Both the position numbers and the translations under genes were made by a program. The notes beneath the pieces are model-generated. The model saw only the letters and a list, made by a program, of their open reading frames with translations. It was not told where the DNA came from and searched no databases. Positions 6,030 through 46,852 of a stretch of 64,000 nucleotides of DNA are shown here, in pieces (position 1 is the stretch's first letter; each line of letters starts with the position of its first letter). Source of the DNA: an uncultured Pirellulales bacterium (GTDB lineage: Bacteria > Planctomycetota > Phycisphaerae > Sedimentisphaerales > Anaerobacaceae); the NCBI GenBank assembly GCA_964612465.1, contig CAZTDF010000001.1:2660-66659 (forward strand), in the 5' to 3' direction.

Positions 6030-6067
6030 TGAGTAATGATTGTTGAATAAAAACCAAAGGGAATACC

Positions 6068-8536: not shown

Positions 8537-8566
8537 AAATCAATAATTGATGAGTTAAGGACGGCA

Positions 8567-10984: not shown

Positions 10985-11026
10985 TTATCAAAGAATATGG
11001 AACACATAAGATCGAAGGAATGATAA

Positions 11027-13507
11027 ATGAAGACAATATGGCACGATATGCGTTATGGGCTTCGCCAATTGCGTAAGAGCCCCGGTTTCACTGCGGTCGC
11101 GGTGCTGTCACTGGCCCTGGGCATTGGAGCTAACACGGCGATCTTCAGTATGATCAACGGGATTCTGTACAAGTCTTTGCCGGTTCGCAATCCGCATGAG
11201 TTGCGTGTGATTAACTGGACAAGTCGTAAGTGGCCTCAGATGCGTCATCCTGCAGGGGGCTTCGAACACACCAAGTCTAATGAGTTCTACAGCGGTTCCT
11301 TCCCGTATCCTGCATACCTCGACTTCGCCGAACAGGCACGAGGATTCTCCGATATTTTTGCCTTTTCCCGTACTGATAGTCCCAAGACGATCAATGCAGG
11401 CGGCGTTGCGACTTTGGCAAACGGGCAGATGGTGTCGGGCAACTTTTTCAAGAGCTATGGTGCACGTGTCTTGATTGGAAGACCTATTACGCCCGAGGAT
11501 GACCTTCCTGACGCTCCGCCGGTGGCCGTCCTCACCTATCCTTTTTGGCAACGCGTCTATGGTCTCGATCCTCACGTTTTAGGCCGGACTCTCACAGTAG
11601 GCAAAACAGGTTTTACCATCATTGGTGTACTGCCTCGTCGTTATATAGGTCCACTGGCCAGTGTAATGCACACCGATTTCTATGTGCCTATGATGGCCCG
11701 GCCGCGACTGACAGGCGAAGAAGATGGGTGGTTGAACTCCGATAACGCATGGTGGGTTCAGATGATGGGGCGATTGGCTCCGGGGGCCAATGATGCTCAG
11801 GTGCAGGCATCATTGGAACTTCTTTTCAGTCATGTTGTCAATCGCTCTGAAGCGGAGTTAAACCGGCCCGGGATCTTCTTGCAAAAAGGTCAGCAAGGGG
11901 TATTGGGTGAACGTCGACGAATGGCTGAATCCTTATGGTTTCTGCAGATCGTGGTGGGTCTGGTCCTGTTAATCGCCTGCACGAATCTGGCAGGTCTGCT
12001 TCTGGCCAGGGGGGCAGCCCGTCAACATGAGATGGCCGTGCGTGCGGCGATAGGCGCCGGGCGGTGGCGTCTCATACGCCAGTCACTCACGGAGAGCATG
12101 ATCCTGTCACTGGCGGGTGTTTGTCTCGGGTTGGTATTCTCCGTATGGATAAGAGCGGCACTGACCGGCTTTGTTATCGATCCGTCGAGCAATAGACACT
12201 TCAACCTACAGGTTGATGCGAATGTTTTGATGTTTGCGCTGGCCGTTAGCGTGGTCACTGCCTTATTGTCCGGTCTTTTTCCTGCATTGCGTACTGGCAA
12301 CACCGACCCATCTGCAGGGCTTAAAGACGGCGGGAGCCGCGGCGCCCCCCGGCTTCGCCTGGGGAAAGTGTTGGTCACTGCGCAGGTGGGTTTGTCCATC
12401 GTTCTGGTCCTGTTCGGCGGGCTTCTATGTCGAACCCTGATCAATCTCTATCGAACGGATACGGGATTCGACACGGAGAATCTCTTGTTGGTTCCAATCT
12501 CTCCTGGACAGTCCCTATCCCCACCGAAAGATCGTGAAGGTTTCTTTAATTCCGTGCGTCAGAAGATCACAGGCATCCCTGGCGTCCGGTCGGTTGCCCT
12601 TTCAAATTGGACATTGCTGGAAGGAAGGGGAAAAAGCCCTGACATATCGATCCCCGGCCGTCCCGAGGAAAAGCCGCGCGAGTCCCTTTCACTGTTTGTG
12701 AGTGACGGATACTTTGCGACAATGGGGATCGACCTGCTGCAAGGGCGAGACTTCCGTGCTGCGGATACACGAGGCTCCCAGGATGTCGCCATCGTCAATG
12801 AGGAATTCGTACGTTTGTTTTTCCCGGATGAGAATCCCCTGGGCCAGTTCATAACGGTCGGAAGTGTACAATATCAAATCGTGGGTTTATGCAGTAACCA
12901 CGGATGTCAGAACTTGCGTTTAGACATTTCACCGATTCTTTATAGACCTCATTCACAACATTCACTGTCCAATATGACTTACGCGATACGCACTGTGCTT
13001 CCACCGATGTTTCTGATACCTGTTGTGCGCAAGGCCGTGGCCGATATAGACCGCAACCTGCCGCTGGAGGGGATGACCACACAAAAACTCGCTATCAAGG
13101 AGTCTCTTCGTCTGGAACGCCTCATGACATCGCTTTGTGGAAGTCTTGCCCTACTGGCCCTGGCGCTGTCCTGCATCGGTCTGTATGGGATCATGGCCTA
13201 CAATGTCGCGCGCCGAACCGGCGAAATGGGCATTCGCAAGGCTTTGGGTGCGCAGCCCTCAGATGTGGCCTGGCCGATCCTCCGAGAGGCCCTGATACTC
13301 ACGGCCATAGGTATAGCCATCGGCTTACCTGTCGCCTTGGCTTTGGTCCGCGGGATGCGTAGTGTTTTCTACGGCATCGAACCTCATGATCCTATCACGA
13401 TAATCGGGACCGTCGTGATTATGGTCACGGTCGCGGCCATGGCCGCATGGATACCTGCCCGCCGGGCGGCAAAGGTCGATCCCATGGAGGCGCTGCGGTA
13501 TGAGTGA
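11027..13507 (+). CDS. Duplicated FtsX/MacB-type ABC permease, ADOP-like paralog 4 (subgroup B)
   Basis: N-term [41 protein letters not shown]. Modules HEMAVRAAIGAGRWRLIRQSLTESMIL and EMGIRKALGAQPSDV. C-term [17 protein letters not shown]. Confidence 0.9.
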   Translation: MKTIWHDMRYGLRQLRKSPGFTAVAVLSLALGIGANTAIFSMINGILYKSLPVRNPHELRVINWTSRKWPQMRHPAGGFEHTKSNEFYSGSFPYPAYLDFAEQARGFSDIFAFSRTDSPKTINAGGVATLANGQMVSGNFFKSYGARVLIGRPITPEDDLPDAPPVAVLTYPFWQRVYGLDPHVLGRTLTVGKTGFTIIGVLPRRYIGPLASVMHTDFYVPMMARPRLTGEEDGWLNSDNAWWVQMMGRLAPGANDAQVQASLELLFSHVVNRSEAELNRPGIFLQKGQQGVLGERRRMAESLWFLQIVVGLVLLIACTNLAGLLLARGAARQHEMAVRAAIGAGRWRLIRQSLTESMILSLAGVCLGLVFSVWIRAALTGFVIDPSSNRHFNLQVDANVLMFALAVSVVTALLSGLFPALRTGNTDPSAGLKDGGSRGAPRLRLGKVLVTAQVGLSIVLVLFGGLLCRTLINLYRTDTGFDTENLLLVPISPGQSLSPPKDREGFFNSVRQKITGIPGVRSVALSNWTLLEGRGKSPDISIPGRPEEKPRESLSLFVSDGYFATMGIDLLQGRDFRAADTRGSQDVAIVNEEFVRLFFPDENPLGQFITVGSVQYQIVGLCSNHGCQNLRLDISPILYRPHSQHSLSNMTYAIRTVLPPMFLIPVVRKAVADIDRNLPLEGMTTQKLAIKESLRLERLMTSLCGSLALLALALSCIGLYGIMAYNVARRTGEMGIRKALGAQPSDVAWPILREALILTAIGIAIGLPVALALVRGMRSVFYGIEPHDPITIIGTVVIMVTVAAMAAWIPARRAAKVDPMEALRYE

Positions 13508-23679: not shown

Positions 23680-24377
23680 ATGATTAAACTTAACCACATT
23701 CAAAAACGTTACAACACACGTGCAGGATTTGTCTATGTGCTGCAACAGATCAACCTGACCATCGAAAAAGGAGAATTCGTCACCATCATGGGCCCATCCG
23801 GGGCAGGTAAAACAACGTTGCTGAACATCATCGGCATGTTGGACGGTGAGTGGGAGGGCGAGTATTATCTTGATGAGAATCCTGTGCACGAACTCAAGCC
23901 AAAGAACCGCCTAGCTCTGAACCGGCAATATATCGGCTTTGTCTTTCAGAACTTCAATCTGCTGGATAGTCTTACTGTATACGAGAATCTGGAGGCCCCG
24001 CTGTCCTATCGCAATGTCAAGGGCTCCGAGCGAGCGAGCATCGTCTGCGATACACTGGATCGTTTCAGCATTGTGGGCAAGAAAGACCTTTTCCCCAGCC
24101 AGCTCTCCGGCGGCCAGCAGCAGCTTGTGGGTGTAGCGCGGGCCGTAGTAGCCAGCCCCAAGCTGATCCTTGCGGACGAGCCTACAGGCAATCTGCATTC
24201 GAGTCAGGGCAAGGACGTAATGGCCCTGCTCAAGAAGCTCAATCGCGAGGGCACCACGATAATCCAGGTGACGCACAATGAAGGTTATGCCGCCTACGGC
24301 AATCGCATAATCAAACTCAAAGACGGCTGGCAGGACGGCGAGGTCGTAATCGAACAATCGGTCAAGAAGGAGAATCT

Positions 24378-24381
<4 letters not shown>
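23680..24381 (+). CDS. ABC transporter ATP-binding protein, MacB/LolD type (ATPase 2)
   Basis: Walker [10 protein letters not shown], signature LSGGQQQLV, Walker [14 protein letters not shown]-loop QVTHN. The stop TGA (24379-24381) overlaps the ATG (24378) of the next permease in an ATGA overlap. Confidence 0.9.
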
Positions 24382-26852
<2,471 letters not shown>

Positions 26853-29472: not shown

Positions 29473-31989
29473 ATGAGAACTATATGGCAAGACATGCGTT
29501 ACGGACTTCGCCAGTTACGCAAAAAACCGGGATTTACGGCCATCGCTCTGATTACTCTGGCCATCGGCATCGGGGCCAATACGTTGATGTCCAGCATCGC
29601 CGATTGGCTACTGTTTCTTCAGCCCAGACATGTGAAGAACTACGAGCAGTTGGCGTGCTGCGATGTCCGCGCCGCGTCTGATTATACAACTTACATCACC
29701 ATCCGTGACAGCGTCTCGGCCTTCAGCGATGTCATGGCTCAGAGTCGCGACGGTATGGTAGGAGATGTCACTGTGGTTCGTGAGCAGACGGCCTGGCACG
29801 GCAAGGCAACGTACGTTTCGTCGAACTACTTCTCTTTTTTGGGAGTCGCGCCCGTCCTGGGGCGGGGCTTCCTGCCCGGCGAAGACCAGCAAGGCAGCGC
29901 TCCGGTCGTGGTGCTGAGCTATCCCCTCTGGCAGCGGCTGGGGGGCGATCCGAAGCTCGTCGGCGAGTATGTGAACGTCAACGGCGCTGTTTGTCAGGTT
30001 GTCGGTGTGGCGCCGCAGGGGTTCACCGGCACCTCGCTCCTGGGGCCCGGCCTCTGGGTGCCGCTGGGCAACTGGGTGTCGATGGGCAGCATCGGAACGA
30101 TTCGGATGCGGGAACAGACTCGGCCCGCCAACGCCGGGGCCGGTTGGGGCTATCCTTGGGCGCTTCATGCCATCGGACGACTCAAGCCGGGCGTGAGCAT
30201 GTCGGTTGCCCAGACACAATTGCAATTCCTAATCCCGCGTTTTCGAGCAGAGGATCCGGAAGAGTGGCCGGCTGTTGCTTCCTTTTCTCTTCGCCCGCCT
30301 GACCGGCTCTTCCTTGATTCGATCAATCTTCCGTATCTCACCAAATACAGTCTGATCCTGATGGCCGGGTCCGTGGTCACCCTGCTGATCGTCTGCTTGA
30401 ACTTGGCGAGCATGCTGATCGTGCAGGGAGCCTCGCGCCACCGTGAGATCGCCATCCGATTGGCCGTCGGCGGAGGCCGCCTGCGGATTATTCGGCAGTT
30501 GCTCGTCGAGTCTGCGCTGTTGGCGCTGCTGGGAGGAGTTCTCGGTGTTCTGCTGGCGGTCTGCGGGATGCGGATTCTCAATGTATGGTTCGCCGGCGCC
30601 AATTGGGAAGTGATGAGAGCTATCCGAGTTGGCCTGGACATTCGCATTCTGATGGGCACACTGGGTTTCTGCCTGATCGCTACGTTGCTGTTCGGTCTAA
30701 GACCTGCTCTGAGGCTGTCCCGGCGTGATCTTGCCGAGGAGATGAAGGGATCCGCCAGTGGCGTGCTGGGGTCCGTCCACCGCAAGCGAGGCGGTCTTTC
30801 GGTAGCGGGCCAGATCACGCTGGCCGTAGTCCTGGTCCTCGTCGCTGCCCTGCTGTTGCGCAGTGCCCTGGAGACAGCGCGGCCGGACCCACGGTTCCAC
30901 CTGGAGGACACGCTGGTCGTTCGGATCGATCCGGAATCGTCCGGCTATGACAAGGTCCGGAGCATGCAGGCATGCGAGACCCTGGCTGATCATCTGGCGT
31001 CCCTGCCGCCAGTCGAGGCGCTGGGGACAGCACCCAACCTGTTCTACGGGGGTGGCGGGGAGCAAACGATACGCGAATACCGGCCGGGGGAAGAAGGCGA
31101 GCCCTGGAAGCATCGCGCACGACACGCCAACATGCTCGCCATAGGCCGGGACTACTTGCCGGCGCTGGAGGTCCCGCTGCTGCAGGGGCGCCTCTTCGAC
31201 CGGCGAGACAGTGTCCCCGACGCGGAGAAGGTCGCGATCATCAATGAAACCCTGGCGCACAGGCTTCGTCCCGACGGCAGTGCTCTCGGCTGTCTGGTCC
31301 AATGGGGCGTGCCTGAACTTGGTGGCTACTGGTGTCCCGATGTCTACCGGGTGGTCGGGGTCGTCACCGGCCTGCCGGGCATACAGGACCGGGAAGCGAG
31401 TTTCCAGATGTACGTACCCGCCGCCGGACCGGATGACTTACCTTCTTACTTCTACCTGCACGTCAGAGATCGTGAAGCGGTCGAGACTCTACGGTCGCAG
31501 ATGGTCGAGGAGATCCACCGGGTCGATCCGCGTATCCCGGTTCTGTCGGTGACGACTCTGGCAGAGATACACGATACTGATTTCAGAGTATGGTATGCGA
31601 GATTCCACGCTCGTCTGGCACTGACGGCCGGGGTGGTGGCTTTGTTTCTGGCGGCGCTGGGCATCTATGCCATCAAGGGCTATATGGTCACTTCGCGCAC
31701 GTCGGAGATCGGTATCCGTATGGCCATGGGGGCTACGCGCAGGAGCATCATGGCCATGATCCTGCGAGACGGACTGGTGCTGACGGTGGTCGCACTACTG
31801 GTAGGCTTGCTGCTGGGTTTGGCTGTCGCGCGGGTAGGGGCCAGCCTACTCTACGGCGTCAGCCCGGTCGATCCGGTCAGCATCGTAGCAACCGTGGCCC
31901 TGCTCGGCGGCGTTTCCCTCCTGGCCGGCTACTTCCCGGCCCGCCGGGCGGCAAAGATCGATCCAATGAAGGCACTTAAATATGAATAA
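29473..31989 (+). CDS. Duplicated FtsX/MacB-type ABC permease, ADOP-like paralog 11 (subgroup A)
   Basis: N-term [41 protein letters not shown]. Modules REIAIRLAVGGGRLRIIRQLLVESALL and EIGIRMAMGATRRSI. C-term [17 protein letters not shown]. Confidence 0.9.
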   Translation: MRTIWQDMRYGLRQLRKKPGFTAIALITLAIGIGANTLMSSIADWLLFLQPRHVKNYEQLACCDVRAASDYTTYITIRDSVSAFSDVMAQSRDGMVGDVTVVREQTAWHGKATYVSSNYFSFLGVAPVLGRGFLPGEDQQGSAPVVVLSYPLWQRLGGDPKLVGEYVNVNGAVCQVVGVAPQGFTGTSLLGPGLWVPLGNWVSMGSIGTIRMREQTRPANAGAGWGYPWALHAIGRLKPGVSMSVAQTQLQFLIPRFRAEDPEEWPAVASFSLRPPDRLFLDSINLPYLTKYSLILMAGSVVTLLIVCLNLASMLIVQGASRHREIAIRLAVGGGRLRIIRQLLVESALLALLGGVLGVLLAVCGMRILNVWFAGANWEVMRAIRVGLDIRILMGTLGFCLIATLLFGLRPALRLSRRDLAEEMKGSASGVLGSVHRKRGGLSVAGQITLAVVLVLVAALLLRSALETARPDPRFHLEDTLVVRIDPESSGYDKVRSMQACETLADHLASLPPVEALGTAPNLFYGGGGEQTIREYRPGEEGEPWKHRARHANMLAIGRDYLPALEVPLLQGRLFDRRDSVPDAEKVAIINETLAHRLRPDGSALGCLVQWGVPELGGYWCPDVYRVVGVVTGLPGIQDREASFQMYVPAAGPDDLPSYFYLHVRDREAVETLRSQMVEEIHRVDPRIPVLSVTTLAEIHDTDFRVWYARFHARLALTAGVVALFLAALGIYAIKGYMVTSRTSEIGIRMAMGATRRSIMAMILRDGLVLTVVALLVGLLLGLAVARVGASLLYGVSPVDPVSIVATVALLGGVSLLAGYFPARRAAKIDPMKALKYE

Positions 31990-32000: not shown

Positions 32001-33680
32001 ATGCAAAAAAGAAGACTATGTAAACATATGACAAAGCCTGAGGAACACAAGTGTTGCATTTGTCAATGGCTTGTATCCGCCTTAGCTTTGCTGGCGCTGG
32101 CGGGTTGTCCCGCTCCAACTTTGAAAGAGAATCCAAAGGTCGAGACTTTGACCATGGGACTTGATACGATTGATACTGTCCAACCGAAGGACCTTTCGGA
32201 TTCGCCACCGGTTTCCGTTGAACAGGCCACTGCAGAAGTCACCGAGCAGATCGGCGAGCCCAATGAGTTGATCCCTGTGATTGAGCTGACGCTCGAACAA
32301 GTACGCGCTGCTACTCTGGCCAACAACCTGGATCTCAAGATCGATCTAATCGATCCTGCTATTGCACAGCGAGCAGTTGACATTGAACGCGCCAAGTTCG
32401 AAACGACCTTCTATGGCTCTGCGGTATATAGCACCTCAGAGACAAAAGAAGGGATATCATCCACAAGCAATGAATATGATATGGGTATAGAAAGCCCTCT
32501 GCACACCGGCGGTTCGATCGCGGTAGGTTTGCCTTTCGGAGAGTTTGACTCCGACGATTCCGACAGTATGGCCGATGCTGCGATTAGTGTCTCTTTCATC
32601 CAATCTCTGCTCAAGGGGGGGGGGACTCGCATCAATACCCATTCAATTCGCATCGCCGGTTATCAAAAACACGCTGTCGATGCCCAGACCAAACAGACTA
32701 CTATTTATCTGCTGGCGGCTGCTGACATCGCCTACTGGCGTCTCTATATGGCTTGCCGAGAACTTGATATCCGTCGTGAGCAATACAAGCTGGCCCAGGA
32801 TCAACTCAATCATGCTCGTCTTAAAGTGGCCTCGGGCTCATCTCCCAGGATCGAAATTGTGCGCGCCGAGGCAGGCCTGTCCAGTCGGATTGAGGCGCTT
32901 ATCAACGCCGAGACGACGGTTCAAAACCGCCAGCTTGATTTGCAACGCATTATGAACCAGGAGGATATGCCGCTCAATGCGAACATAAAGATCACTCCGA
33001 AGACCGAACCAAATCCACTGGGACTGGACATCGACGAGGAAAAGCTTGTCGGAATCGCGCTCGGAAATCGCATGGAGACCGTCCGGCTTGAATTGCAGTT
33101 GGCTATAGATGAGCTGGACGTCGAATTAGCGCATAATGCAATGCTGCCCGACCTTAAGTTCAATTACAGTTACACCACTCAAACGCAGGCTGGTGATGCT
33201 GGCCATGCCCTTGGAGATTTTGGGGACAAAAATTCTGATTACCATTCCATCGGTCTTTCCGCAAGTATTCCCCTGGGTAACCAGGCTGCCAAAATGCGTG
33301 TGGAGAGGGCGAAACTTCAGCAGCTTCAGGACCAGGCTAGTTACGCCAGGCTCCGTCAGATGATCCAGCAGGAAGTATATAACACGGTCAGGGCATTGCG
33401 AAATAGCTGGCGACGTATTCTGGCCGCTGAAAAGTCTGTTGATGCCGCATACCGTGACTATAAGGTTGAACAATCGCAGTTTCAGCTTGGTCGGAGTAGG
33501 AGTACGGATGTATTATACTCCGCAACGGGTCTGGCGGATGCACAACTGAGCAGGATTCGTGCTCTTACCGAATACGAAATTGCTCAGATTTATCTTGCCC
33601 AGGCGACAGGGACACTGTTGGGATACAGCCGGATAATTTTAGAGCCGACAGATATTCAGGCTCTGAGTGACATTCGCTAA
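32001..33680 (+). CDS. Outer-membrane efflux protein (TolC/NodT-type lipoprotein)
   Basis: Signal peptide with lipobox LLALAGC. Two internally similar alpha/beta halves with long helical segments typical of OEP-family proteins. It is the last gene of the efflux block, 11 nt after permease 11. Confidence 0.8.
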   Translation: MQKRRLCKHMTKPEEHKCCICQWLVSALALLALAGCPAPTLKENPKVETLTMGLDTIDTVQPKDLSDSPPVSVEQATAEVTEQIGEPNELIPVIELTLEQVRAATLANNLDLKIDLIDPAIAQRAVDIERAKFETTFYGSAVYSTSETKEGISSTSNEYDMGIESPLHTGGSIAVGLPFGEFDSDDSDSMADAAISVSFIQSLLKGGGTRINTHSIRIAGYQKHAVDAQTKQTTIYLLAAADIAYWRLYMACRELDIRREQYKLAQDQLNHARLKVASGSSPRIEIVRAEAGLSSRIEALINAETTVQNRQLDLQRIMNQEDMPLNANIKITPKTEPNPLGLDIDEEKLVGIALGNRMETVRLELQLAIDELDVELAHNAMLPDLKFNYSYTTQTQAGDAGHALGDFGDKNSDYHSIGLSASIPLGNQAAKMRVERAKLQQLQDQASYARLRQMIQQEVYNTVRALRNSWRRILAAEKSVDAAYRDYKVEQSQFQLGRSRSTDVLYSATGLADAQLSRIRALTEYEIAQIYLAQATGTLLGYSRIILEPTDIQALSDIR

Positions 33681-33777
33681 GCAGCCTAACGATTTCGCTA
33701 TCATCTATGTTGAATGCCCTATTTAATCCATCCCAAACGAAGCCGATGCGATGTCAAGCATCTTCAGTGATAATTCT

Positions 33778-33827
33778 GGTTCATCCGATTAATGCGTAGG
33801 TTGAGCTATGCATTAATTGGATGAACC
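33778..33827. repeat. Long inverted repeat / hairpin (18-nt arms with 1 mismatch, 14-nt loop) downstream of the TolC-like gene
   Basis: GGTTCATCCGATTAATGC - 14 nt - GCATTAATTGGATGAACC, read directly. There is no T-run after it (TAAAAAG), so it is not a canonical intrinsic terminator. Confidence 0.5.
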
Positions 33828-33979
33828 TAAAAAGTATAAGGAAATTCGAAAGATTACGGCATGACCCAATCCTGTTCGGCACAAGGATTGCTGTGTGATT
33901 TATGGGGGGTAGAAATACCCAAAACTTTTTTTACATATTACCTATTTTAAACTGGCGCGCTGTATGCGCTTGTGTTTAA

Positions 33980-35176
33980 ATGCCTTTCATGAGCAAAAAA
34001 AGGCATAAAATTAAAGAACGCGAACTCCAAGGCTTTAAGTACTTCAAGACCATTTCCAAAATCCTGGAGTCTCTTCATGACGTTGGATGTCAGAGAGATC
34101 TTGCCGGCAACCGAATCCTGCACATGGATCAATATATTTCCTTACTCTTGTTGCATATGTTCAATCCCATCTGTACGTCCCTGCGATCCCTGCAGCAGGC
34201 CAGTGAGCTGAAGAAAGTACAAAAGAAGCTCGGTGTCCCCCGCGCATCCCTGGGTAGTCTGTCAGAGGCAGCGAGGGTCTTCGACAGCCAAAGCATGCTG
34301 GAAATCATCGGACAGCTCGGTGAGCAACTCGAGCCGGTCGCTCAACACGACAAACTCAAAGATTTACCCGGGATCCTCACCGCAGCCGACGGCACCCTTT
34401 TGAAGGGTTTACCCAAGATTGCCTGGGCCCTGTGGATCGACGATAAGCATAAAGCCATCAAGAACCATGTCCACTTTGAAATCCTCAAGGGTGTCCCTGT
34501 CAAGGCCACGATAACAGAGGGCAATGGCAATGAGAAAGATGTCCTGGCCGAGACCCTGGACGCCGGCCGGATCTATGTTCTGGATCGAGGGTATGCCAAA
34601 TACAGCCTTCTGCAAAAGATTCTGGATCACAACAGTTCCTTTGTTTGCCTGATACGAGACAATTACGTCTGTCAGGTCATAGAGGAACGTCCTGTCACCG
34701 CAGACGCCGAAGCGGCCGGCGTTGTACGAGATCGTATTGTTCGATTAGGTTCTAACGCCAAAAGCGACGAAATCCCCGGAGCGGTTCGTGTTGTTGAGGT
34801 GAAATGCCAGCCACATGTCAAACGTATGCACACAGGACGCAGTGGTCCGGAACAGTTAGAGACAATTGTCATAGCAACGGATTTGCTGGATATTGAAGCG
34901 GATGTGATTGCGTTGATCTTCCAATATCGCTGGACGATTGAAATCTTCTTTCGTTTCTACAAACACATTTTAGGCTGTCGTTACCTGCTAAGCTACAATC
35001 AGAACGGCATCGAATTACAGACCTATGCGGTCATCATTGCGTGTATGTTGATATCGCTTTGGATGGGTCGTAAGCCGACCCTGCGAACATATAAAATGCT
35101 CTGTTGGTATTTCACAGGCATGGCCGATGAAGAAGAGTTGTTGTCTCATATTCATCGTCTGCAAAAAATTGGCTAA
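33980..35176 (+). mobile_element. IS4/IS5-superfamily DDE transposase gene (DDE_Tnp_1 type)
   Basis: 398-aa ORF. DDE-region strings YVLDRGYAKYSLL and IATDLLD. C-terminal R-x3-E-x6-K signature in FQYRWTIEIFFRFYKHILG (the YREK-type motif of IS4-like enzymes). Terminal inverted repeats could not be identified by eye. Confidence 0.75.
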
Positions 35177-35274
35177 TTCATACATTGGTTCGTCCTTGGA
35201 GAGAACGAGCGTGGGCTTGGGAATTCGATAAAAGAACGCACTCTCTCGGCTACGACATCACATTGCTCTGATGG

Positions 35275-36354
35275 TCAAGCGGCTAATCTGTGGTACGACT
35301 TCAGCAGGCCACCCAAACGTTCGATGCAGACAATCTCCGCCGTTTCTTCAATAGTGTGTTTGGGCTCAATGATTCTGTCCAGCGATTGATGAATCCGTTC
35401 GTGATGATAATATTCACTATACTGCGCAATCACATATTCAAACTGCTCCACAGATGACAGAATCAAATGATCCAAACGCTCGGATTTTACGGATTTGACA
35501 AAGCGTTCGGTGTAGCAATTCAAATCTGGGCTTCGGGCAGGAAACTTCACCGGTTCTATCCCGGAATTCTTCAGTATCTCATGGAATCCTTCTGTGGTAT
35601 ACAGCGGATCTCGATCATGGATTAAATACCGTTTCCCATGGAGAAAACCATCCTCAAAATCCGTCAGAATCTTCGCCACTTGCTTCATATAGGCCCCATC
35701 CGGCTGAAGCTTGATAGGAGCAAAAAAGACCTTCCGGGTAGCAAGCTCTATAACAAAGAACACTTTACAGCGGACTATTTTGCGGCTCACAAGAAGCTCA
35801 ATGGTAAAGAAGTCACAGGCGGCCAATACGTCCCAATGACTCTTGATATATACATGCCATGTTGATCTGACGGTTAAGTCTGGCTCAAGATCATAACCGT
35901 TTTCGATCAATATATTCTTTACACTGGATTTGCTGATCTTGTCGCCCAGGTAAACGATCTGGTCGGTGATCTTCTGGCATCCCCAACGGGGATTTTCTTC
36001 TTTGAATCGTATCACAAGATTGACAATCTCCTGACCTATTTGTGGTCGACCAGGTGACGTTCGGTTCTGAGACCCATCATACTTCCGGGCAATGAGTTCC
36101 CGAAACCACCGCATGATAGTGTCTGGCGTGAACAACTCTGTACATTGCTCCAGCATCTTTCGGCTGAACCGTTTGGCCTTAGCCGCCAGCCTCATCCGCT
36201 GGCTGTTGTTCAGTCGAATACGTTTATTCTGCTTTTCCTGACGCTCCACAAGGACTCGGACCTGTTCTCGGAGATAGTCAATGGCTTTGTAGAGTTCTTT
36301 ATCGATGCAATAGGCCAGGCAAGTGGTGAGTGTAATCCACATTTTCTGTTTCAT
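35275..36354 (-). mobile_element. IS481/IS3-like DDE transposase gene (HTH plus integrase-core rve domain)
   Basis: 359-aa single ORF. N-terminal HTH-like region, then rve-type catalytic strings WDVLAACDFFTIEL, YLIHDRDPLYT, NCYTERFVKSVKSERL and YYHHERIHQSL. Confidence 0.75.
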
Positions 36355-36719
36355 AGTCCGGATACATTACGAAATCCTCCTTCAACAGGCAATTACTTTC
36401 ATCCGCGACGACCTTATGTCACTTTTGTAGAAGGAGTTATGTGGGTATAATATATGCACCCTATGCCCTTCGGGGTAATTCTGATGAAGAGAGTTAAACA
36501 TTCTTTAAAGCTTCCCGATTCAATTAGGGAGCATTCACACGGGAATGGTTCGGCCGCAAATAGATACGAATATGAGTTTCATCATGGTCGAGTTTGGGAG
36601 AAATTATCTGCGGGGAAAACCGAACTTTCAGCAGGCAGAAGCTTAAGAAATTTTCATGGGGTTTTCTCGGGAATATCACCTCTCAATAAAGGGTTCTCAA
36701 GAGAAGGGTGGCGACTAAA

Positions 36720-36909
36720 AGCTGTTAGTACAACGAAGGCTGTGGCCGGTCCTTTAGTGCCGCGAGCGTTGCCTATAGTATCGATGGCAGTTAGTGCACA
36801 TTCGAATCATGAAATTATAGAACATTCGGGTAACGCAACTGTTATGGTTTATAGAAAGCGATTCATTGAAAGAAAAAAGGAAGATATCCCTATGAAATAT
36901 GCAGGTTAA
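36720..36909 (+). pseudogene. 3' remnant of an EcsC-family gene (paralog of 62398..63279), truncated upstream next to the IS elements
   Basis: The C-terminal about 50 aa of ORF 36454..36909 (LVPRALPIVSMAVSAHSNHEIIEHSGNATVMVYRKRFIERKK) match the C-terminus of the full-length EcsC-like protein (LVPRALPVVSMAVSAHSNHEIIEHSGKAAFMVYRRRFIERKK). The N-terminal 90 aa of the ORF have no counterpart. Confidence 0.6.
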
Positions 36910-38372
36910 GCGAATGAGTCGATTTTCTTTTTGCAGATTTCCTGGGTTAATTCCATAAGCTTTTGGACACATTGCTCAAGATGGGCCATGTCGACTTTTG
37001 TGATATTATATGAGTCTTCGCTATAAATATAAACTTGAGCATTGTTCAGGAGGTTGAAGATTTTGTCCTGTCGCTCGGTTGTACACGGAAAAACAGTAAG
37101 AAAAACAGGTTCGTAACTTGCGACGTACCTGCCAAGCTTTTCAAGGTCACAGCTTTGGGGGTTATAACCGCTAAATACCAGTAGTATCGCTGTATAAAAG
37201 CATTTTATAGACTGGTGAAGTTCAAGGAGGGCTTCGTTGTACCATTTTTTTTCTAAATCATATTGGAAATGAGCATAGAAATGTTTTGCCTTTTCATTCC
37301 ACGCATCGAAATTTTGCTGGGCGATTTGTTTTCTTTTCTTGAGGTTAGTTTTTCGTTTTTTTGCAAATCGGAATCTTCCGGAGTCATAAAGCATTATTCC
37401 TTCTTCTATTATATCGGAGAAGAAGTATTGGTCATTGTTTAGCTGAGCGTTAATATACTGAATATCGTGAAAGATGAGATTTACGGTTGTTTCCGCACGG
37501 TTAAGCTTGCCCTCGACTTTATTCTGCAGTTCCGGGTTATTGGCAGATTCGGCATACTTAGTGACAACCAGGATGTCAAAGTCGGATTTGTATTCGTATG
37601 TGCGATCCTTCTCGTTGCAGACATCTTCAACCCATTTACCACGGGCATAAGAGCCAAACAGGATTACCATCTGAACGTCATCCAGTTCCTTAAGAATAAT
37701 CTCTGTTATGGTAGATAGCTCATTGACCTTGTATTCTGGCAGGTGTGACAAGGATTTCGTCATACTGCTCTTATGGACGACTATCGCAGAAGGATTTTCT
37801 CTTAGACCAGCAGCAGGATTTTTTATCCTGTCATTACCCTGAGCGACATCATGAATAAAATTATCGAGAAAATTTTTCTTTTCAACAGTTGCCCCCATAG
37901 ATTTTCCATCTGGCGTTGCTTCAATCGCGGCAGCGTTGCCGTGAGAACCGAAAAACTTCTCGAAATAGGCGCAACTCAAACAATCTCCCATGCAGCGAAT
38001 GACACCTTTGCCGAATTGTCGCACAACTACGAAGCAGTAATCTATTTCTCTTCCATATATCAGGCAGTTCTTACACTCCCTCTCGCAGTTTGTTTTTTGC
38101 AGATATTCCCAGCAATGTCCTAATGCGCCAGATGTTGCGACCTTCTTCTCTTTGGGAGAACTCTTACGTTGCAGGGTTTCCAGAAAAGATATGGCTTCGG
38201 AGATGGGGATTCTGTGCTTGCCTCCTACGGTTCTGATCGTACTGATTTTGCCCTTGTCGATCCAGCTAAGAATGGTAAAACGCGAGACGCCGCAAAACCT
38301 CGCAAGCTCGGTCGTAGTCAAATACTCTTTCCGCGGACCGGTTCCACTATAAATTGTATTTCTTACTGCCAT
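36906..38372 (-). CDS. Fusion protein: excisionase/MerR-type HTH + 8-Cys domain + minimal nucleotidyltransferase (Pol-beta fold) + HEPN-like domain
   Basis: HTH: TTTELARFCGVSRFTILSWIDKGKISTIRTVGGKHRIPISEAISFL. Cys cluster: CWEYLQKTNCERECKNCLIYGREIDYCFVVVRQFGKGVIRCMGDCLSCAYFEKFF. NTase: ILFGSYARGKW...KSDFDILVV. C-terminal helical HEPN-like: WYNEALLELHQSIKCFYTAILLV. Confidence 0.75.
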   Translation of the reverse strand: MAVRNTIYSGTGPRKEYLTTTELARFCGVSRFTILSWIDKGKISTIRTVGGKHRIPISEAISFLETLQRKSSPKEKKVATSGALGHCWEYLQKTNCERECKNCLIYGREIDYCFVVVRQFGKGVIRCMGDCLSCAYFEKFFGSHGNAAAIEATPDGKSMGATVEKKNFLDNFIHDVAQGNDRIKNPAAGLRENPSAIVVHKSSMTKSLSHLPEYKVNELSTITEIILKELDDVQMVILFGSYARGKWVEDVCNEKDRTYEYKSDFDILVVTKYAESANNPELQNKVEGKLNRAETTVNLIFHDIQYINAQLNNDQYFFSDIIEEGIMLYDSGRFRFAKKRKTNLKKRKQIAQQNFDAWNEKAKHFYAHFQYDLEKKWYNEALLELHQSIKCFYTAILLVFSGYNPQSCDLEKLGRYVASYEPVFLTVFPCTTERQDKIFNLLNNAQVYIYSEDSYNITKVDMAHLEQCVQKLMELTQEICKKKIDSFA

Positions 38373-38665: not shown

Positions 38666-39023
38666 GTGCATGTTGTTGATTTGGACAGAGTTGGAAGGTT
38701 GCAACAACGGGTACCGCCAAATGTGTGGTTTATTGCCTTTCGACAAGCTAAAATGAATTACGATGTCAGGCTTGATCGAAAATGGTGCAGGGTATTACTG
38801 TAACCGACGGGGACGGAGTGCGGGATAAGACCGAATGAGTCGAAAAACGAAAACTAGGACGATGCAATTAGACAGGATGTTTTTATGCCGAATAAAAGGC
38901 TTTCGAGAAAATAATGGCTCAGTGATTATCGTTGCGCTATCCATTGATATATGATAACGACCCAATTCTGTAACTTATAGCATAATTGGGCTTGGCCTCA
39001 TAATATCGAGCATGGATAGAATA

Positions 39024-39047
39024 CCAGCAAGGACTGCTGGAGTTTTT
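39024..39047 (+). terminator. Terminator-like hairpin 1 (CCAGCA-AGGAC-TGCTGG followed by AGTTTTT)
   Basis: 6-bp GC-containing stem, 5-nt loop and a short T-run, read directly. Confidence 0.4.
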
Positions 39048-39089
39048 AATACTCCCCGGGGTGTGGCAGGAAAGGTTAGAAAGATATAA

Positions 39090-39130
39090 CCCAGCTGGTT
39101 ATGCAAATGGATAGCCGACTGGGTTTTTTT
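39090..39130 (+). terminator. Rho-independent terminator-like hairpin 2 followed by T7
   Basis: CCCAGCTGG ... CCGACTGGG stem (5+3 bp with an internal mismatch) followed by TTTTTTT at 39124-39130. It ends 35 nt upstream of the first small ORF of the cluster. Confidence 0.5.
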
Positions 39131-39164
39131 AATAGAGAAAAATCAACAGAGAAAGGATTTAGTG

Positions 39165-39320
39165 ATGGCAGTAATAGGGTTGGCTATATTGGGTGTACTT
39201 TTAGGAGCAGCAGGAATGCAGTTTCTTCGTTCAAGTAAGCCGGAACTGGTGGAAAAGGCCGAAGATGGCATAAAGCGATTTTGGAATTCAATGCCTTTTA
39301 CGAAATCGGATGACAAGTAA
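39165..39320 (+). CDS. Small membrane-anchored protein (51 aa), below the ORF-track cut-off
   Basis: ATG 39165 preceded by GAAAGGA. MAVIGLAILGVLLGAAGMQFLRSSKPELVEKAEDGIKRFWNSMPFTKSDDK, stop TAA 39318-39320. Same architecture as the next ORF: an N-terminal Gly-rich TM helix plus a charged helix. Confidence 0.5.
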   Translation: MAVIGLAILGVLLGAAGMQFLRSSKPELVEKAEDGIKRFWNSMPFTKSDDK

Positions 39321-39377
39321 GAAAACAAAAGCCAAATAAAGCAAAACAATTTTGTGTTGACAAGGAAAGGAAATGCC

Positions 39378-39569
39378 ATGCTTAAGAGTTTAGGAATTCT
39401 GATAGGCGGAGTATTCGTCGGTGCTGTAAGTGTAGAAGTTGTTCGCAGGAAGTGTCCGGATGCACTGGACGATCTGTATGTAAAAATCCGTGAAGTAGCC
39501 TCTGAAGTAAAGGAGGCTTTCAAAAATGGTTACGAAAAAGCCGGTCAACCAAAACCGGCTGCCGCTTGA
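39378..39569 (+). CDS. Small membrane-anchored protein (63 aa)
   Basis: ATG 39378 with AAGGAAAGGAAA upstream (the track ORF is open from 39354). MLKSLGILIGGVFVGAVSVEVVRRKCPDALDDLYVKIREVASEVKEAFKNGYEKAGQPKPAAA. Confidence 0.55.
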   Translation: MLKSLGILIGGVFVGAVSVEVVRRKCPDALDDLYVKIREVASEVKEAFKNGYEKAGQPKPAAA

Positions 39570-40111: not shown

Positions 40112-41578
40112 ATGACCATATTTGACTATTTAATATTCGCTTTGTATATGGCAGGTGTTTTAACAGTTGGTCTTTATCATTATACTCGTAACAAGAATAT
40201 CGAAGATTATTACGTCGGCAGCCGGTCAATAGGGTCTTCTTATGTTGGGCTTTCAATTGTTGCTACGGATGTCGGAGGGGGCTTTTCCATTGGTTTGGGC
40301 GGCCTTGGTTTTGTGATGGGACTTGCAGGAAGCTGGCTTTTGTTTACCGGTCTGATCGGAGCATGGCTAAGTGCCGTATTTATTATTCCACGAATCAAGA
40401 AAATTGATGCAAAATATAAATTCATGACCTACCCCGATTTCCTTCGGTACAGATATAACGATGAAGTAGCCTTAGTCGCCGCGATAATTTCCGGCATTGC
40501 ATATCTTGGTTTTGCCGGTGTTCAAATGCTCGCCGGTGCCAAGTTGGCTTCCGTGACAATCATCCAGAACAATCCTTTTGGAGTTGAGCCAATAACATTT
40601 GCATTGGTTTTTATGGCGGTTATTACCATAACTTACACGGTTGTCGGCGGCCTTAAGGCGGTCATTTATACCGATGCCGTTCAATGGGTACTGCTGCTTG
40701 GCGGACTGCTCATTACGATCCCTGTAGCGTTGTATAAAATCGGAGGCATGGATGCCCTCAGACAGAAACTGCCGCCGGAATATTTTTCTCTTTCAAACAT
40801 TTCGCCGGCAACATTTATTAATTGGATGCTAACGATTATTCCCGCCTGGCTGATCGGCAATACGATATACCAGCGAATGTATGCTTGCAAAGATGAGTAT
40901 GAGGCCAAACGCGCATGGTATATTGCAGGTTTTCTTGAGTATCCGGTTATTGCATTTGCCGGTGCATTTCTTGGTATGTGTGCCCGTGTTGTCGCTCCTG
41001 GCGCCGAGCCGGAAATGGCAATGCCGATACTTATTCGCGATGTTCTGCCGGCAGGCGTAACTGGGATAGTCATCGTGGCATATTTTTCAGCGATAATGTC
41101 AACAGCGGACAGTTGCCTTATGGCGTCTTCCGGCAACTTCGCGACTGATATTATAGAACGCTATTTTTTTCGCAGAATTTCAACTAAAGCATCGATTCGT
41201 TTGTCGATGTTGATAACTCTTATTATCGGCACTCTTTCGGTTGTTATGGCCGCCCAGTTCACTTCGGTTCTACATGCCGCTCTCTATACATATGCCTTTA
41301 TGGTTTCAGGGCTGTTTGTGCCGACCCTTGGGGCTTATTTCTGGGAGAAGGGCAGTTGCTCCGGTGCTATGGCTGGCATGCTTGCCGGAGGAATAACCAC
41401 AGTTTTGTTGTTAACCAATACCCTTGTTCTTCCGGAAAAACTCGAATCTTTAGGTTTGTATGATGGTTTGTACGGCATAGCCTGTTCCACTGTAGCGTTC
41501 GTCGGCGTGTCATTACTTTTTCCGGATACAACAACTGATTTTGGGGATTTCGCTGTTGCTCAGAGCAACGCAGTATGA
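40112..41578 (+). CDS. Sodium:solute symporter family (SSF) transporter
   Basis: 488 aa and about 13 TM helices. N-terminal SSF-type strings [36 protein letters not shown], plus [17 protein letters not shown]. Confidence 0.8.
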
Positions 41579-41604
41579 TTCATTGTAAATTATAGGTATT
41601 AACG

Positions 41605-43728
41605 ATGGATAATGAAAAACAGTATTTAGAGTTTGTTGGGAATGCATCCGAACGTGCAGGTGCCCTTGCCGGCAAGGTGGCAAGTATTAGCAATAAAATC
41701 GCGAGTCGTGCAACCGGAAGTATCTCAGCGGGAAAAGAAATGCTTGGCTTAGCTGACGAAAAGGTCAAACACAAATCTGAAAAGAAGTCGGACAATACCA
41801 AAACTTCTATACTCAAATCCGACCTTGCCGCAGTCCAACGAAAGTTGACTAACATGGAAAAAACACAATCAAAGCTCGAATCACAGATCAAGAAACTGAA
41901 AACAGAGAATCACTCATTAGTATCCCAGATGGATCAAATGCGAAGTGAACTGAGTGAGACGAAATCCCGCGAAAGTGCGGTAAGGGCACGAGCAGCAGCA
42001 CTGGAATCGGAGCTTGATGATATTAGAAGCCAACTCGAAGAAACACAGAGCAAACCTGCAAAGACAACTGCTGTGGGAGTTGGCCGAAGTAAGCGGGTAG
42101 CCGAGTTGGAATCTGAGCTTGCTGCAACTCAGTGTGAATTGGAAGAGACGCGAAAGAAAGCTGAGCAGGCTCAATCTGAGTTTGCATCGCAACTCGAGGC
42201 TATACAGGTGGAAAACAAATCCTTGAGTTCTGATCTGGAAAAAACTAAAAGTAAAGCAAACCAAGATCAGGCTGACCTCAAGTCTCAAATAAGTAACCTT
42301 CAATCGGAAAATAATTCTTTGAAGTCTGAGCTGGAAAACCAGCGAACTGGGGAAAATAAGATGCTGAATTTAGAAGAGGAATTAAAAACACGGGCAGCCC
42401 AGTTAGAAGCTGACCTTGCCGCAACGCAGAGTGAATTGGCTGAAGCACAAAATCAGGCTGAAAAAGATCAAAATGATATTGCATCGCAACTCAAAGATAT
42501 AAAGGTTGAAAAAGAATCCCTGATTTCGGATTTGGAAAAAACACAGAATAAAGTTAATGAGATAACTTATCGAGAAGAACAAGTGAGCAAACAAGCGGCT
42601 AAGTTAGAATCAGAACTTGCCGCGACACAACAGGAACTGGCCGAAACACAGAATCAGGCTGAATATTCCCAAACTGAACTTATAAAACAACTTCAGAACC
42701 TGCAGGCAGAGAATAAATCTTTGATTTCTGAGCTTAACCAGGCTCGCAAAAAGGCTGACGATGCAGGAATACGAGCCGATTTGATTGAGTCAAAGATAGC
42801 TACATTGGAATCTAATGTCAGCGATGCTCACCTTAAGTCAGAAGAAGAATCAGGTATAGACATCACTTTACCACAAACAGATTATCAGGATGAACCTGCT
42901 GTTGTACCGACTGTGGAAGAAATCAAACCTTTAATTGAATCTGATGTTGTTCAGGACGAGCTCATAAATGCAGACATTGAAAATATTGAAGTGCCGGAAC
43001 CGGAGCCGGAACCGATACTTGAGTCTGATACTGAGATAGATGTTGAAAAAATAGAACCTGAGCTGCTGCCGGAGGTTGAGTTAACAGAGCCAGTGAAAGT
43101 GACAATCGAGGATGTGCAGGCATCTGATTTTAAAAATGAGGCGGAAAGAATAATCTTTACAAAAGCTCTTTCTGATTTTGCCAGCGCCGATACAGCAATC
43201 CGTGTGGATGCAGCTAAAACAATCGGCGGCATTTCTCATGAACTGTCAGCCCGGATCATTGTTGCTCATATAGCCGATGAAAAGTCAGCGGCGGTACGTC
43301 AGGAATGTATCAAGGCATTGTTAACACTTGAAATGGCTGAAGGACTAAGTGCTGTTGAAAGTGCTTTGACAGACGAGACTGCTTCTGTACGTTTAGCTGC
43401 TGTGTGGGGGATATATCGCTTGGCTGGGATCAAGAGTCTGCCGAAACTTTTAGCGATGTTATCTGACGGAGACGTAAGTGTTCGGCGAAGAGCTGTTACA
43501 TGTATCGGCTGGTTAGGCGGACAACTCAAGACCATCGGCGACTCCCGACTTCGTCGAGTTATCTCGGCCTTGATTGAGTGTTTGAACGACTCTGCTGAAT
43601 CAATGAGGAAAGCTACCCTTGATGCCTTACAAGCTGTCACCGGTAAAACTATTTCAATAGGTAAGAGTTCACCCGAGTTTCTGATTGACCAATGGCGTAT
43701 TTGGTGGAAAGAGGAGCTTCTAAGCTAA
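41605..43728 (+). CDS. Large coiled-coil protein with an acidic linker and C-terminal HEAT (PBS-lyase type) repeats
   Basis: About 400 aa of heptad-rich sequence with four copies of the motif LE[SA][ED]L[AD][AD][TI][QR].[EQ]L.E[TA][QR]. Acidic E/P/D linker (VPEPEPEPILESDTEIDVEKIEPELLPEVE). HEAT-like repeats (AIRVDAAKTIGGI, AAVRQECIKALLTL, ASVRLAAVWGIYRL, VSVRRRAVTCIGWLG). Confidence 0.75.
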   Translation: MDNEKQYLEFVGNASERAGALAGKVASISNKIASRATGSISAGKEMLGLADEKVKHKSEKKSDNTKTSILKSDLAAVQRKLTNMEKTQSKLESQIKKLKTENHSLVSQMDQMRSELSETKSRESAVRARAAALESELDDIRSQLEETQSKPAKTTAVGVGRSKRVAELESELAATQCELEETRKKAEQAQSEFASQLEAIQVENKSLSSDLEKTKSKANQDQADLKSQISNLQSENNSLKSELENQRTGENKMLNLEEELKTRAAQLEADLAATQSELAEAQNQAEKDQNDIASQLKDIKVEKESLISDLEKTQNKVNEITYREEQVSKQAAKLESELAATQQELAETQNQAEYSQTELIKQLQNLQAENKSLISELNQARKKADDAGIRADLIESKIATLESNVSDAHLKSEEESGIDITLPQTDYQDEPAVVPTVEEIKPLIESDVVQDELINADIENIEVPEPEPEPILESDTEIDVEKIEPELLPEVELTEPVKVTIEDVQASDFKNEAERIIFTKALSDFASADTAIRVDAAKTIGGISHELSARIIVAHIADEKSAAVRQECIKALLTLEMAEGLSAVESALTDETASVRLAAVWGIYRLAGIKSLPKLLAMLSDGDVSVRRRAVTCIGWLGGQLKTIGDSRLRRVISALIECLNDSAESMRKATLDALQAVTGKTISIGKSSPEFLIDQWRIWWKEELLS

Positions 43729-46237: not shown

Positions 46238-46852
46238 GTGCTAAAAGAAACCATAACTAAAAATAAGATCGAGTTGCGGAAGGATTGTCTGACAACGACT
46301 GAACTTGCAAAACTCTGCGGTGTTTCTCGTTTTACTATTATCAATTGGGTTAACCGAGGCAAAATTAGAACAATGAAAACTGTCGGAGGCCATTGCAGGA
46401 TTCCGGTATCCGAAGCAATCGCTTTTTATGAGACTTTTCATGAAGAAAAGACTGGCTTTATATCTGAATCATTGTGCCATTGCTGGGAATATCCACAAAA
46501 GGCCAAGTGCAATAAAGAGTGTAAAGACTGCCTGCTATATAAAAGCCGGATTAATTACTGCTTCGTGGTGGTACGCGAATTTGGCAAAGAAGTGGTCCAT
46601 TGTAAAGGTGATTGTTTGAATTGTGATTATTTTGAAGAGTTTTTCAGTTCTTACAGCAAAATCGAGCAGCTAAACGAGACGGAAGATGGCGAAAGTAAAA
46701 AAAGAGCCAAAGACAAGAAAAGCTTTCTGTATAGTGTCGTATACGGTGTTGGGCGCGGCGTCCAGGAAGTAAAGGAAAGAGTCACGGATATTAAAGAGGT
46801 GTTTGGAGGCAGAGGCTCTCGAACCAAACAGATGGAAGATAGCGATGTCTAA
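46238..46852 (+). CDS. HTH (excisionase/MerR type) + 8-Cys domain transcription factor; short paralog of 36906..38372
   Basis: TTTELAKLCGVSRFTIINWVNRGKIRTMKTVGGHCRIPVSEAIAFY, then CHCWEYPQKAKCNKECKDCLLYKSRINYCFVVVREFGKEVVHCKGDCLNCDYFEEFF. Collinear with the N-terminal 150 aa of the NTase-HEPN fusion. Confidence 0.75.
   Translation: MLKETITKNKIELRKDCLTTTELAKLCGVSRFTIINWVNRGKIRTMKTVGGHCRIPVSEAIAFYETFHEEKTGFISESLCHCWEYPQKAKCNKECKDCLLYKSRINYCFVVVREFGKEVVHCKGDCLNCDYFEEFFSSYSKIEQLNETEDGESKKRAKDKKSFLYSVVYGVGRGVQEVKERVTDIKEVFGGRGSRTKQMEDSDV

Follow-up and report, generated by a model that had tools for sequence, protein, structure and literature searches.

A probable displaced left edge of a magnetosome gene island beside an efflux locus in an uncultured Pirellulales bacterium

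It has long been debated whether magnetosome genes spread mainly through descent or through horizontal transfer, and the evidence has been mostly phylogenetic and concerned with ancient events. In the present study, we describe a 64,000-nucleotide stretch of DNA (C1:2660-66659, hereafter the window) from the metagenome-assembled genome of an uncultured Pirellulales bacterium (G000), in which a low-GC magnetosome gene island follows a MacB/TolC-type efflux locus, with two insertion sequence (IS) transposase genes between them. In Alphaproteobacteria, magnetosome islands with deviating composition, mobile elements and placement adjacent to tRNA genes have been reported (PMC9938234), and Planctomycetota are known carriers of magnetosome clusters (PMC7602337). 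The island described herein resembles those of Magnetospirillum and Rhodovastum atsumiense G2-11 (PMC9938234) in its deviating G+C content and tetranucleotide usage, in the mobile genes at its edge (the IS4 and IS481-like genes lie within 3 kb of its end), in its placement beside a tRNA gene in the sister genomes, in its patchy distribution and in the evidence for horizontal transfer. It differs from them in its Pirellulales host, in a Planctomycetota-type cluster with Etf/Fix-like genes, and in having IS elements at one edge and inside but no matched pair at both ends. Moreover, the tRNA site of G000 is empty, the island abuts an IS481-like gene instead, and no integrase was detected on the sampled contigs. 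A further difference is that near-identical copies occur in several species-level lineages, and the transfer would therefore be very recent. The magnetosome island as a kind is already known; recent spread between species of Planctomycetota is new.

The second comparable system is the tRNA-targeting integrative genomic island (Williams 2002, as cited in PMC9938234). The present island is similar in its insertion at the 3' end of a tRNA gene, with the intact tRNA on one side and a degenerate repeat on the other, and in the unoccupied site of a close relative, which in this case is G000. In contrast to such islands, no tyrosine integrase was found on the sampled contigs of three genomes, the repeat was found in one genome, and the copy in the window lies away from the tRNA. 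Herein, we propose that the window carries a displaced left edge of the island, where the native tRNA-Ser site has remained empty and a truncated copy is joined through orphan DNA to the IS481-like gene; we assign this reading a probability of roughly 0.6. The G000 assembly comprises 4.77 Mb in 375 contigs with 49.8% GC, at 92.9% completeness and 3.2% contamination. It was compared with three genomes of the same genus (G008, G006 and G001), one of another genus (G012), and three independent Joint Genome Institute (JGI) metagenome contigs that had been retrieved with a 30-mer from the island end.

The island end and the tRNA-Ser(GCU) site

When the DNA of G000 was aligned with contig G008:C9, no similarity was observed left of position 36738, and near-identity was observed right of it. 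The preliminary description of the window had placed the left border of a magnetosome island at about 33.7 kb; what appears to be a genuine end of a mobile unit is indeed present, located at 36738. The island opens with the 3' remnant of an EcsC gene, which shares 73% amino acid identity with the terminal part of the complete EcsC gene (62398-63279), in agreement with the truncated EcsC paralog noted previously. Because the EcsC similarity also starts at 36738, this remnant belongs to the island as its first sequence. The profile match covers only positions 204-240 of 240 (E = 1.2e-3) and not the full-length domain, and the piece is a remnant and not a gene. The open reading frame (ORF) that contains it (36454-36909, 151 codons) is chimeric, in that its first 93 codons derive from orphan DNA plus the edge of the IS481-like block and its last 56 from the EcsC remnant, and its stop codon overlaps that of a convergent 488-aa gene by 4 nt. 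The same truncated remnant opens the island in G008 and in the three metagenome contigs, by which the IS elements of the window were ruled out as its cause.

The island usually sits directly after the tRNA-Ser(GCU) gene, its regular attachment site. In G008:C9, this tRNA ends approximately 50 nt left of the island end, and the DNA before it, of 50-59% GC, encodes two M16 peptidases and a sulfatase. The tRNA-Ser(GCU)-island junction is shared by all three metagenome contigs, one of them with 25 extra nt, and the island end thus lies 50-75 nt after the tRNA in four assemblies. Compared with this canonical arrangement, the copy in G000 is without the first 45 or so nucleotides found between the tRNA and the position corresponding to 36738. 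The M16-M16-sulfatase-tRNA-Ser region of G000 is located on a separate contig (G000:C146) and is 89% identical to that of G008, with about 89-90% for the sulfatase flank; its tRNA-Ser is intact and is followed after 7 nt by unrelated sequence, without an island. The same downstream flank was recovered in the island-bearing G006 (contig C125, 94% nucleotide identity), where it is preceded by GATTCGAATCCCGACCTTTCCGTTCTTT, 28 nt that repeat the tRNA 3' end except for three mismatches. Such an arrangement is expected after site-specific insertion into a tRNA gene, and G000:C146 accordingly represents an unoccupied site. On the other side of this repeat, C125 carries 11 kb of low-GC iron genes, which encode a porin, FeoB, DtxR/FeoA, a cation-efflux protein, an FMN/Fe-S protein and a PDZ protein. 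This contig would be the right end of the island, to judge from its gene content and GC and not from a physical link.

Adjacency to the tRNA and a repeat of the tRNA 3' end were not found in G000 itself; the tRNA side is present in G008 and the metagenome contigs and the repeat in G006, and no such repeat was detected inside G008:C9 or G000:C1. A further tRNA-Ser match on G000:C215 was rejected as an attachment (att) repeat, as it belongs to tRNA-Ser(CGA). Since the usual tRNA-Ser site is empty in G000, the border in the window is probably secondary; it appears to be a genuine island border, but an IS-associated one. In several uncultured lineages of Planctomycetota, the island ends are resolved to the single base, and the states captured comprise an occupied tRNA-Ser site, a degenerate repeat at the presumed far end, an empty site, and a displaced truncated copy. 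These ends lead to two predictions, namely an excised circular form and an integrase.

Recent exchange of the island between species

The preliminary description had regarded the island as horizontally mobile, and the comparisons between genomes support this view. Relative to G008:C9, the island has a nucleotide identity of 96% in the segment 36738-39978 and of 98% in the segment 39866-50999; relative to G006:C79, the value is 98%, whereas ordinary 20-kb stretches of G000 are 90-93% identical to G008, 91-94% to G006 and 75-83% to G001 (96-98% against about 91% for island and ordinary DNA). The proportion of synonymous sites that differ from G008 (pS) is 0.038 for the HEAT-repeat gene and 0.036 for the sodium:solute symporter gene of the island (about 0.037 together), compared with 0.091 for rpoA and 0.328 for the sulfatase gene beside the island of G008, i.e. 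0.09-0.33 outside the island. The corresponding ratios of nonsynonymous to synonymous differences (pN/pS) are 0.54 and 0.40 in the island and 0.14 and 0.21 in rpoA and the sulfatase gene, respectively. The HEAT protein is 95% identical in amino acids in both G008 and G006, with 97.5% nucleotide identity in G008. The presence of the island was counted by this protein, which was found in 5 of 41 related genomes, and the left neighbours of the island differ among genomes. The island is more alike between species than the core, its pS is lower and its distribution is patchy; these data indicate a discrete unit that was recently exchanged between species of the genus.

A segment of 600 nt within the island is 100% identical among G008 and two metagenome contigs and 98.5% identical to G000. 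The sulfatase flanks of the metagenome contigs are 7-8% apart and differ from G000 by 7.4-9.6%, and one of these contigs equals G008. On the basis of copies that are 98-100% identical beside flanks that are 7-9% apart, we tentatively suggest, at somewhat less than even odds, that a complete magnetosome island might now be spreading between species of one Pirellulales genus through site-specific insertion at tRNA-Ser(GCU), with a second mode of movement in G000, where a terminally truncated copy was carried to an IS-rich site and the tRNA site stayed empty. If true, ongoing transfer of magnetosome genes outside Pseudomonadota, with identifiable ends, would be documented with unusual directness by sequence. 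As a separate observation, the island genes at 40112-43728 show few substitutions relative to G008:C9, a high share of which change amino acids (pN/pS of 0.40-0.54, against 0.14-0.21 in the core).

Origin of the junction in the window

The two transposase genes reported previously are both present between the TolC gene and the island, on opposite strands, although the idea that they bound the island as a pair did not hold. The protein of the first is an IS4-family transposase (NF033592, 163 bits against a cut-off of 115; PF01609, E = 1e-17) on the plus strand. That of the second, on the minus strand, is IS481/IS3-like and contains HTH_32 and rve_3 domains, but all NCBIfam IS models remained below their cut-offs (NF033577, 76.8 bits against 224, with similar results for IS3 and IS630). 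The limits of the IS481-like block were set by G008:C85 at 35272 (89% nucleotide identity) and by the end of G008:C15 at 36466 (93%), and no terminal inverted repeats were detected at these limits. The gene is present as a single copy in the G000 assembly, with a pS of 0.295 and a pN/pS of 0.20 relative to G008, and in G008 it also follows the TolC gene, 338 nt downstream, at the end of the MacB array. Because of its core-like pS, the purifying selection and its TolC neighbour in G008, the IS481-like gene is regarded as a long-standing resident of the efflux side that did not arrive with the island. At its other end, the element leads in G008 to tRNA-Met and the rpoA cluster, and this cluster lies in G000 on contig C9, beside a different transposase. 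Since the G008 element leads to the rpoA cluster instead of the island, a rearrangement breakpoint lies at 36466 in G000.

Between this block and the island, an orphan stretch of 271 nt has no match elsewhere in G000, G008, G006, G001, G012 or the three metagenome contigs; neither of the two junction spacers matched the compared genomes. The IS4 element retains its left inverted repeat, and its left end (approximately 33855) could be aligned to six further copies, which terminate contigs of G008 and G006; the consensus is TAGGGACGGACCCAATCCTGTTCGGCAC. Its likeness to other copies ends at the stop codon (35176-35178), whereas those copies run about 170 nt further to an inverted repeat, and this right portion with the right inverted repeat is absent from the copy in the window. 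No duplication of the flanking bases is present, and the whole G000 assembly contains a single copy of the repeat, without a second one. The element is therefore truncated; lacking its right end and second repeat, it cannot transpose as a unit, and it represents an insertion, cut short on the right, in the interval that separates TolC from the IS481-like gene. It resembles the IS4 family (NF033592) in a DDE_Tnp_1 transposase above the cut-off and in a left inverted repeat common to the copies of the genus, and differs in the absence of the 170-nt right end and of a target-site duplication. A second IS4-family copy, within the island but outside the window, terminates contig C1 (C1:74231-74767). 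A composite transposon between the two copies was considered and rejected, as the second copy is only 65% identical in amino acids. The orthologue of this second copy in G006 (C93:4118-5167) is degenerate, split into two ORFs, and is situated within the magnetosome cluster with a MamK-like gene beyond it.

We suggest that the island, or a left-hand part of it, may have been relocated or acquired here by illegitimate or IS-associated recombination and not by tRNA-directed integration. The truncated IS4 element, the absent target-site duplication and the orphan stretch would then be scars of the relocation or of later deletions. Several observations weigh against a displaced island edge. The continuity over 33.5-37 kb is given by the assembled contig alone, a 28-mer across the G000 junction was absent from metagenome and genome collections, and exact look-ups of three junction proteins returned no match, although these collections may lack the records of G000 itself. 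Neither the FeoB module nor a closely matching MamK-like part was found in the G000 bin; the missing remainder fits a partial relocated copy and equally a mis-joined or mis-binned contig. Within the window, the search for inverted repeats and target duplications yielded nothing convincing for either IS element, the ends of IS4 having been defined from other copies, and no such feature ties either element to the junction. In addition, the att-like repeat occurs in one genome only (G006), on a contig linked by content and GC, and the island contigs sampled from G000, G006 and G008 gave no hit to PF00589 (phage integrase), serine recombinases not having been searched.

A mis-join, whether across an IS copy of one and the same genome or between two organisms, is accordingly the main competitor, and we consider it unlikely but far from negligible. 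Within the genome, an assembler could have walked through a repeat with two IS481-like (or IS4) copies, one behind TolC and the other next to the island, and the island would then be flanked by an IS element and the orphan stretch without lying beside the efflux locus. Contigs C85 and C15 of G008 do both end inside the IS481-like element, as contigs do at repeats, IS4 is multi-copy in the genus and breaks contigs, and the other end of the G008 element leads to the tRNA-Met/rpoA cluster that G000 carries on C9. In the G000 assembly, however, the IS481-like gene and the IS4 inverted repeat each occur once, short-read contigs usually break at a two-copy repeat and seldom bridge it, and neither end of C9 has IS481-like sequence near tRNA-Met, where a different transposase is located. 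We therefore regard this version as improbable. Slightly less probable again is that the island half of C1 derives from another co-occurring Pirellulales population through chimeric assembly or mis-binning. This would account for the unique junction, for the empty tRNA-Ser site and missing island remainder of the bin, and for the fact that both halves of C1 are compositional outliers with respect to the bin. On the other hand, the flanks differ up to 36738 with no shared repeat, and such a join would have to sit inside the IS481-like or IS4 element; the left half is 92% identical to G008, which is core-like and consistent with the bin. Nor is the island copy of the G008 type, as it is 98.5% identical where the others are 100% and is without the terminal 45 nt; for this reason, even a chimera would imply a non-canonical, IS-adjacent island end in some organism. 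In the same way, because no repeat is shared across 36466-36738 and the TolC/IS481-like synteny is confirmed in G008, the junction would be informative even if mis-joined, and the interval 36466-36738 would still record an island end joined to the IS481-like element in some genome.

It might also be argued that no horizontal transfer took place, i.e. that the island is inherited vertically, owes its similarity and low GC to strong constraint, and ends at a mere rearrangement breakpoint. The contig with the core genes rpoA, rplQ and secY matches the island in its low GC and has 97% identity to G008, and the nucleotidyltransferase-HEPN gene of G001 is 82% identical, against 75-83% for core DNA. 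Nevertheless, the pS of the island is 2.5 times below that of rpoA and 8-9 times below that of neighbouring core genes, and its higher pN/pS is the opposite of what strong constraint predicts. The 600-nt segment is 100% identical while the sulfatase-gene flanks some 1-1.7 kb left of the island end differ by 7%, an empty site in G000 corresponds to a tRNA-derived repeat before the same flank in G006, and few of the relatives (5 of 41) carry the island. This explanation thus appears very unlikely, and a displaced island edge remains the reading that we prefer.

Composition, gene content and the efflux side

The compositional contrast across the interval is real, and the left flank is the stronger outlier. 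The preliminary description had reported a sharp break, with coding GC of 60-75% on the left, that coincided with the IS genes. GC per kilobase is 50-62% at 1-32 kb and 41-48% from 35 kb on, and both sides fall in opposite tails of the genome, but the change is smaller, graded and stepwise. GC declines from 61.5% in the last permease gene through the TolC, IS4 and IS481-like genes (Table 1) to about 42% from 36.45 kb, and the biggest single step lies at 32.0 kb, between the last permease gene and TolC, and not at the IS genes. Left genes have 50-62% GC; values of 72-74% occur only as GC at third codon positions (GC3) in two permease paralogs (24378-26852 and 29473-31989), the others having 53-65%. 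Among 5-kb windows of G000 (percentiles 1/5/50/95/99 at 43.2/44.7/49.9/54.8/56.5% GC), those on the left reach 57-58%, above the 99th percentile, and those on the right, with 43-44%, lie at the 1st to 5th percentile.

Table 1. Features of the window, with positions counted from its first nucleotide
Feature	Position	Strand	GC	Remarks
Histidine kinase, HlyD-type fusion protein, ABC ATPase	28-3412			Upstream of array; HlyD_3 and ABC_tran matches
MacB-type efflux array	3501-31989	+	51-62% (GC3 53-74%)	Eleven tandem large permease ORFs, 805-843 aa
TolC-type outer-membrane efflux protein	32001-33680	+	50.7%, equal to genome mean	559 aa; Pfam OEP, E = 2.6e-39
Hairpin after TolC	33778-33827			22-nt arms, 91% complementary; short repeated element
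IS4-family element	33855-35178	+	48.6% (transposase gene)	Intact transposase ORF 33980-35176
IS481/IS3-like DDE (rve) transposase block	35272-36466	-	46.2% (transposase gene)	ORF 35275-36354 and 110-nt upstream region
All genes from 36454 on	36454 on		39-49% (GC3 35-51%)	
Orphan stretch	36467-36737			271 nt; between IS481-like block and island
Low-GC magnetosome gene island	36738-64000, continuing beyond the window at least as far as contig C1 reaches	+		At least 38 kb
EcsC 3' remnant	36738-36909	+		Last 56 codons, 172 nt; first bases of island
Gene of 488 aa (HTH_17, Cys-rich, nucleotidyltransferase, HEPN)	36906-38372	-		Leftmost intact island gene

Tetranucleotide usage was compared through Z-scored correlations, with 33 segments of 30 kb from G000 as controls. 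Both the island (r = 0.738) and the efflux array (r = 0.546) fell under all controls (minimum 0.742) in their correlation with the genome, the array being the strongest tetranucleotide outlier in the genome, and the two correlated with each other at r = 0.445, compared with 0.58 at the 1st percentile of 30-kb control pairs. Composition is thus not uniform on the sliding-GC and tetranucleotide checks that had been proposed for the interval. The core contig G000:C9 (rpoA, rplQ, secY), with 43-47% GC and r = 0.751, is nearly as deviant as the island, and because it is equally GC-poor, low GC alone is no mark of foreign DNA in G000. As a practical caution, GC content by itself is misleading in this genome, where a ribosomal-protein cluster is as GC-poor as the island. 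The GC step in the window may arise because the GC-poor island adjoins an unusually GC-rich array of paralogs. In G008, GC falls likewise at its own tRNA-Ser junction.

The magnetosome-type gene set that had been recognised on the low-GC side is present. After the 488-aa gene, the island encodes a sodium:solute symporter, a coiled-coil/HEAT protein, EtfB/EtfA-ferredoxin, a small helix-turn-helix (HTH) protein and an ETF-QO-like oxidoreductase, followed by MamP/E-, MamE-, CDF-, MamA-, LemA/MamQ- and MamB/M-like genes, a 1121-aa PDZ-NifX protein, the full-length EcsC and others; LemA (MamQ-type), PDZ and trypsin domains were also detected. The best NCBIfam scores (MamA, 148.6 bits; MamB/MamM, 238 and 213 bits; MamE, 207.9 bits) are all below the equivalog cut-offs. 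As these cut-offs were trained on Pseudomonadota, the scores mark the magnetosome cluster as one of a distant type. A second, diverged locus was observed in all three island-bearing species (G000:C144, approximately 2471-11811; G006:C45; G008:C53), with a HEAT-like protein (56% amino acid identity), a MamK/actin-like gene (73% nucleotide identity) and a region 66% identical to 38994-39532.

The leftmost intact gene of the island had been described as a toxin-antitoxin-like fusion of MNT and HEPN type. The domains are present, but the MntA model scored below its cut-off (NF047752, 24.6 bits against 60), the HEPN region (residues 357-478) contains no Rx4-6H motif, and both domains are encoded by one gene; 'fused regulator-nucleotidyltransferase' describes it better than 'toxin-antitoxin pair'. 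Similar to the type VII MntA/HepT system, the protein has a Pol-beta-type nucleotidyltransferase, with the GS...DxD motif, beside a HEPN fold, and its relatives are multi-copy like mobile defence or addiction genes. In contrast to that system, it is a single fused polypeptide without Rx4-6H and with an extra N-terminal HTH/Cys module, in which the HTH_17 domain is of the excisionase/MerR type. The small HTH/Cys protein encoded at 46238-46852 is a paralogue of residues 13-192 (50% amino acid identity). In other genomes of the order, residues 203-488 are found as stand-alone genes of about 290 aa, frequently with multiple copies. The best match in the PDB was the nucleotidyltransferase 4nqf (E = 5e-6), and anti-phage defence models gave two weak matches, both to this gene (E = 6e-5 and 3e-4), and none for the other three scanned. 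The protein is 99% identical in amino acids in G008 and 81% in G001, and the G001 gene is 82% identical to that of G000 in nucleotides (one gene). In G001, this gene is followed by a glycosyltransferase, a radical-SAM enzyme and another DDE transposase, without an EcsC remnant. In G012:C67, a full-length EcsC is located at the equivalent place, and a sulfur oxygenase reductase gene (G012:C67:3214-4152, L037; PF07682, E = 7e-132) lies between EcsC and the cluster, taking the place of the nucleotidyltransferase-HEPN gene of G000.

On the left side of the window, eight permease ORFs, a second ABC (ATP-binding cassette) ATPase gene (23680-24381), three more permease ORFs and TolC follow each other; MacB_PCD and FtsX matches were obtained in all three of the eleven permease ORFs that were scanned. 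The efflux locus beside the island had been described as being of different ancestry, which the data do not show. Over the final 986 nt of the array, which fall within its last MacB permease gene, the identity to G008:C85 is 92%, and with this core-like divergence the MacB/TolC locus is native to the genus. Relatives of the TolC protein in the same family and genus are 56-68% identical in amino acids, and the genes after TolC vary among G016, G007 and G001. TolC followed by a sodium:solute symporter was rejected as a kept gene order, as the symporter of G001 is only 28% identical to that of the window.

Several minor observations concern the surroundings of these genes. On the 3' side of tRNA-Met(CAT), by the HIT/rplQ/rpoA/secY genes, the IS481-like element is found in G008:C15 (L048:6728-6956) and a different rve-type transposase gene in G000 (C9:6685-8563); this place is a second tRNA-linked hot spot. 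Further copies of the hairpin behind TolC, with 84-91% identity, were observed in G008:C263, G006:C95 and G000:C10:35615-35668, and the hairpin is either a small dispersed palindromic element or a shared terminator. The efflux array itself may lie in an old island. A Phage_integrase-type gene with an internal stop was observed at G000:C1:362-826, about 1.8 kb left of the window, and a Phage_integrase fragment is located on the same side of the efflux locus in G008 (C85:13-270).

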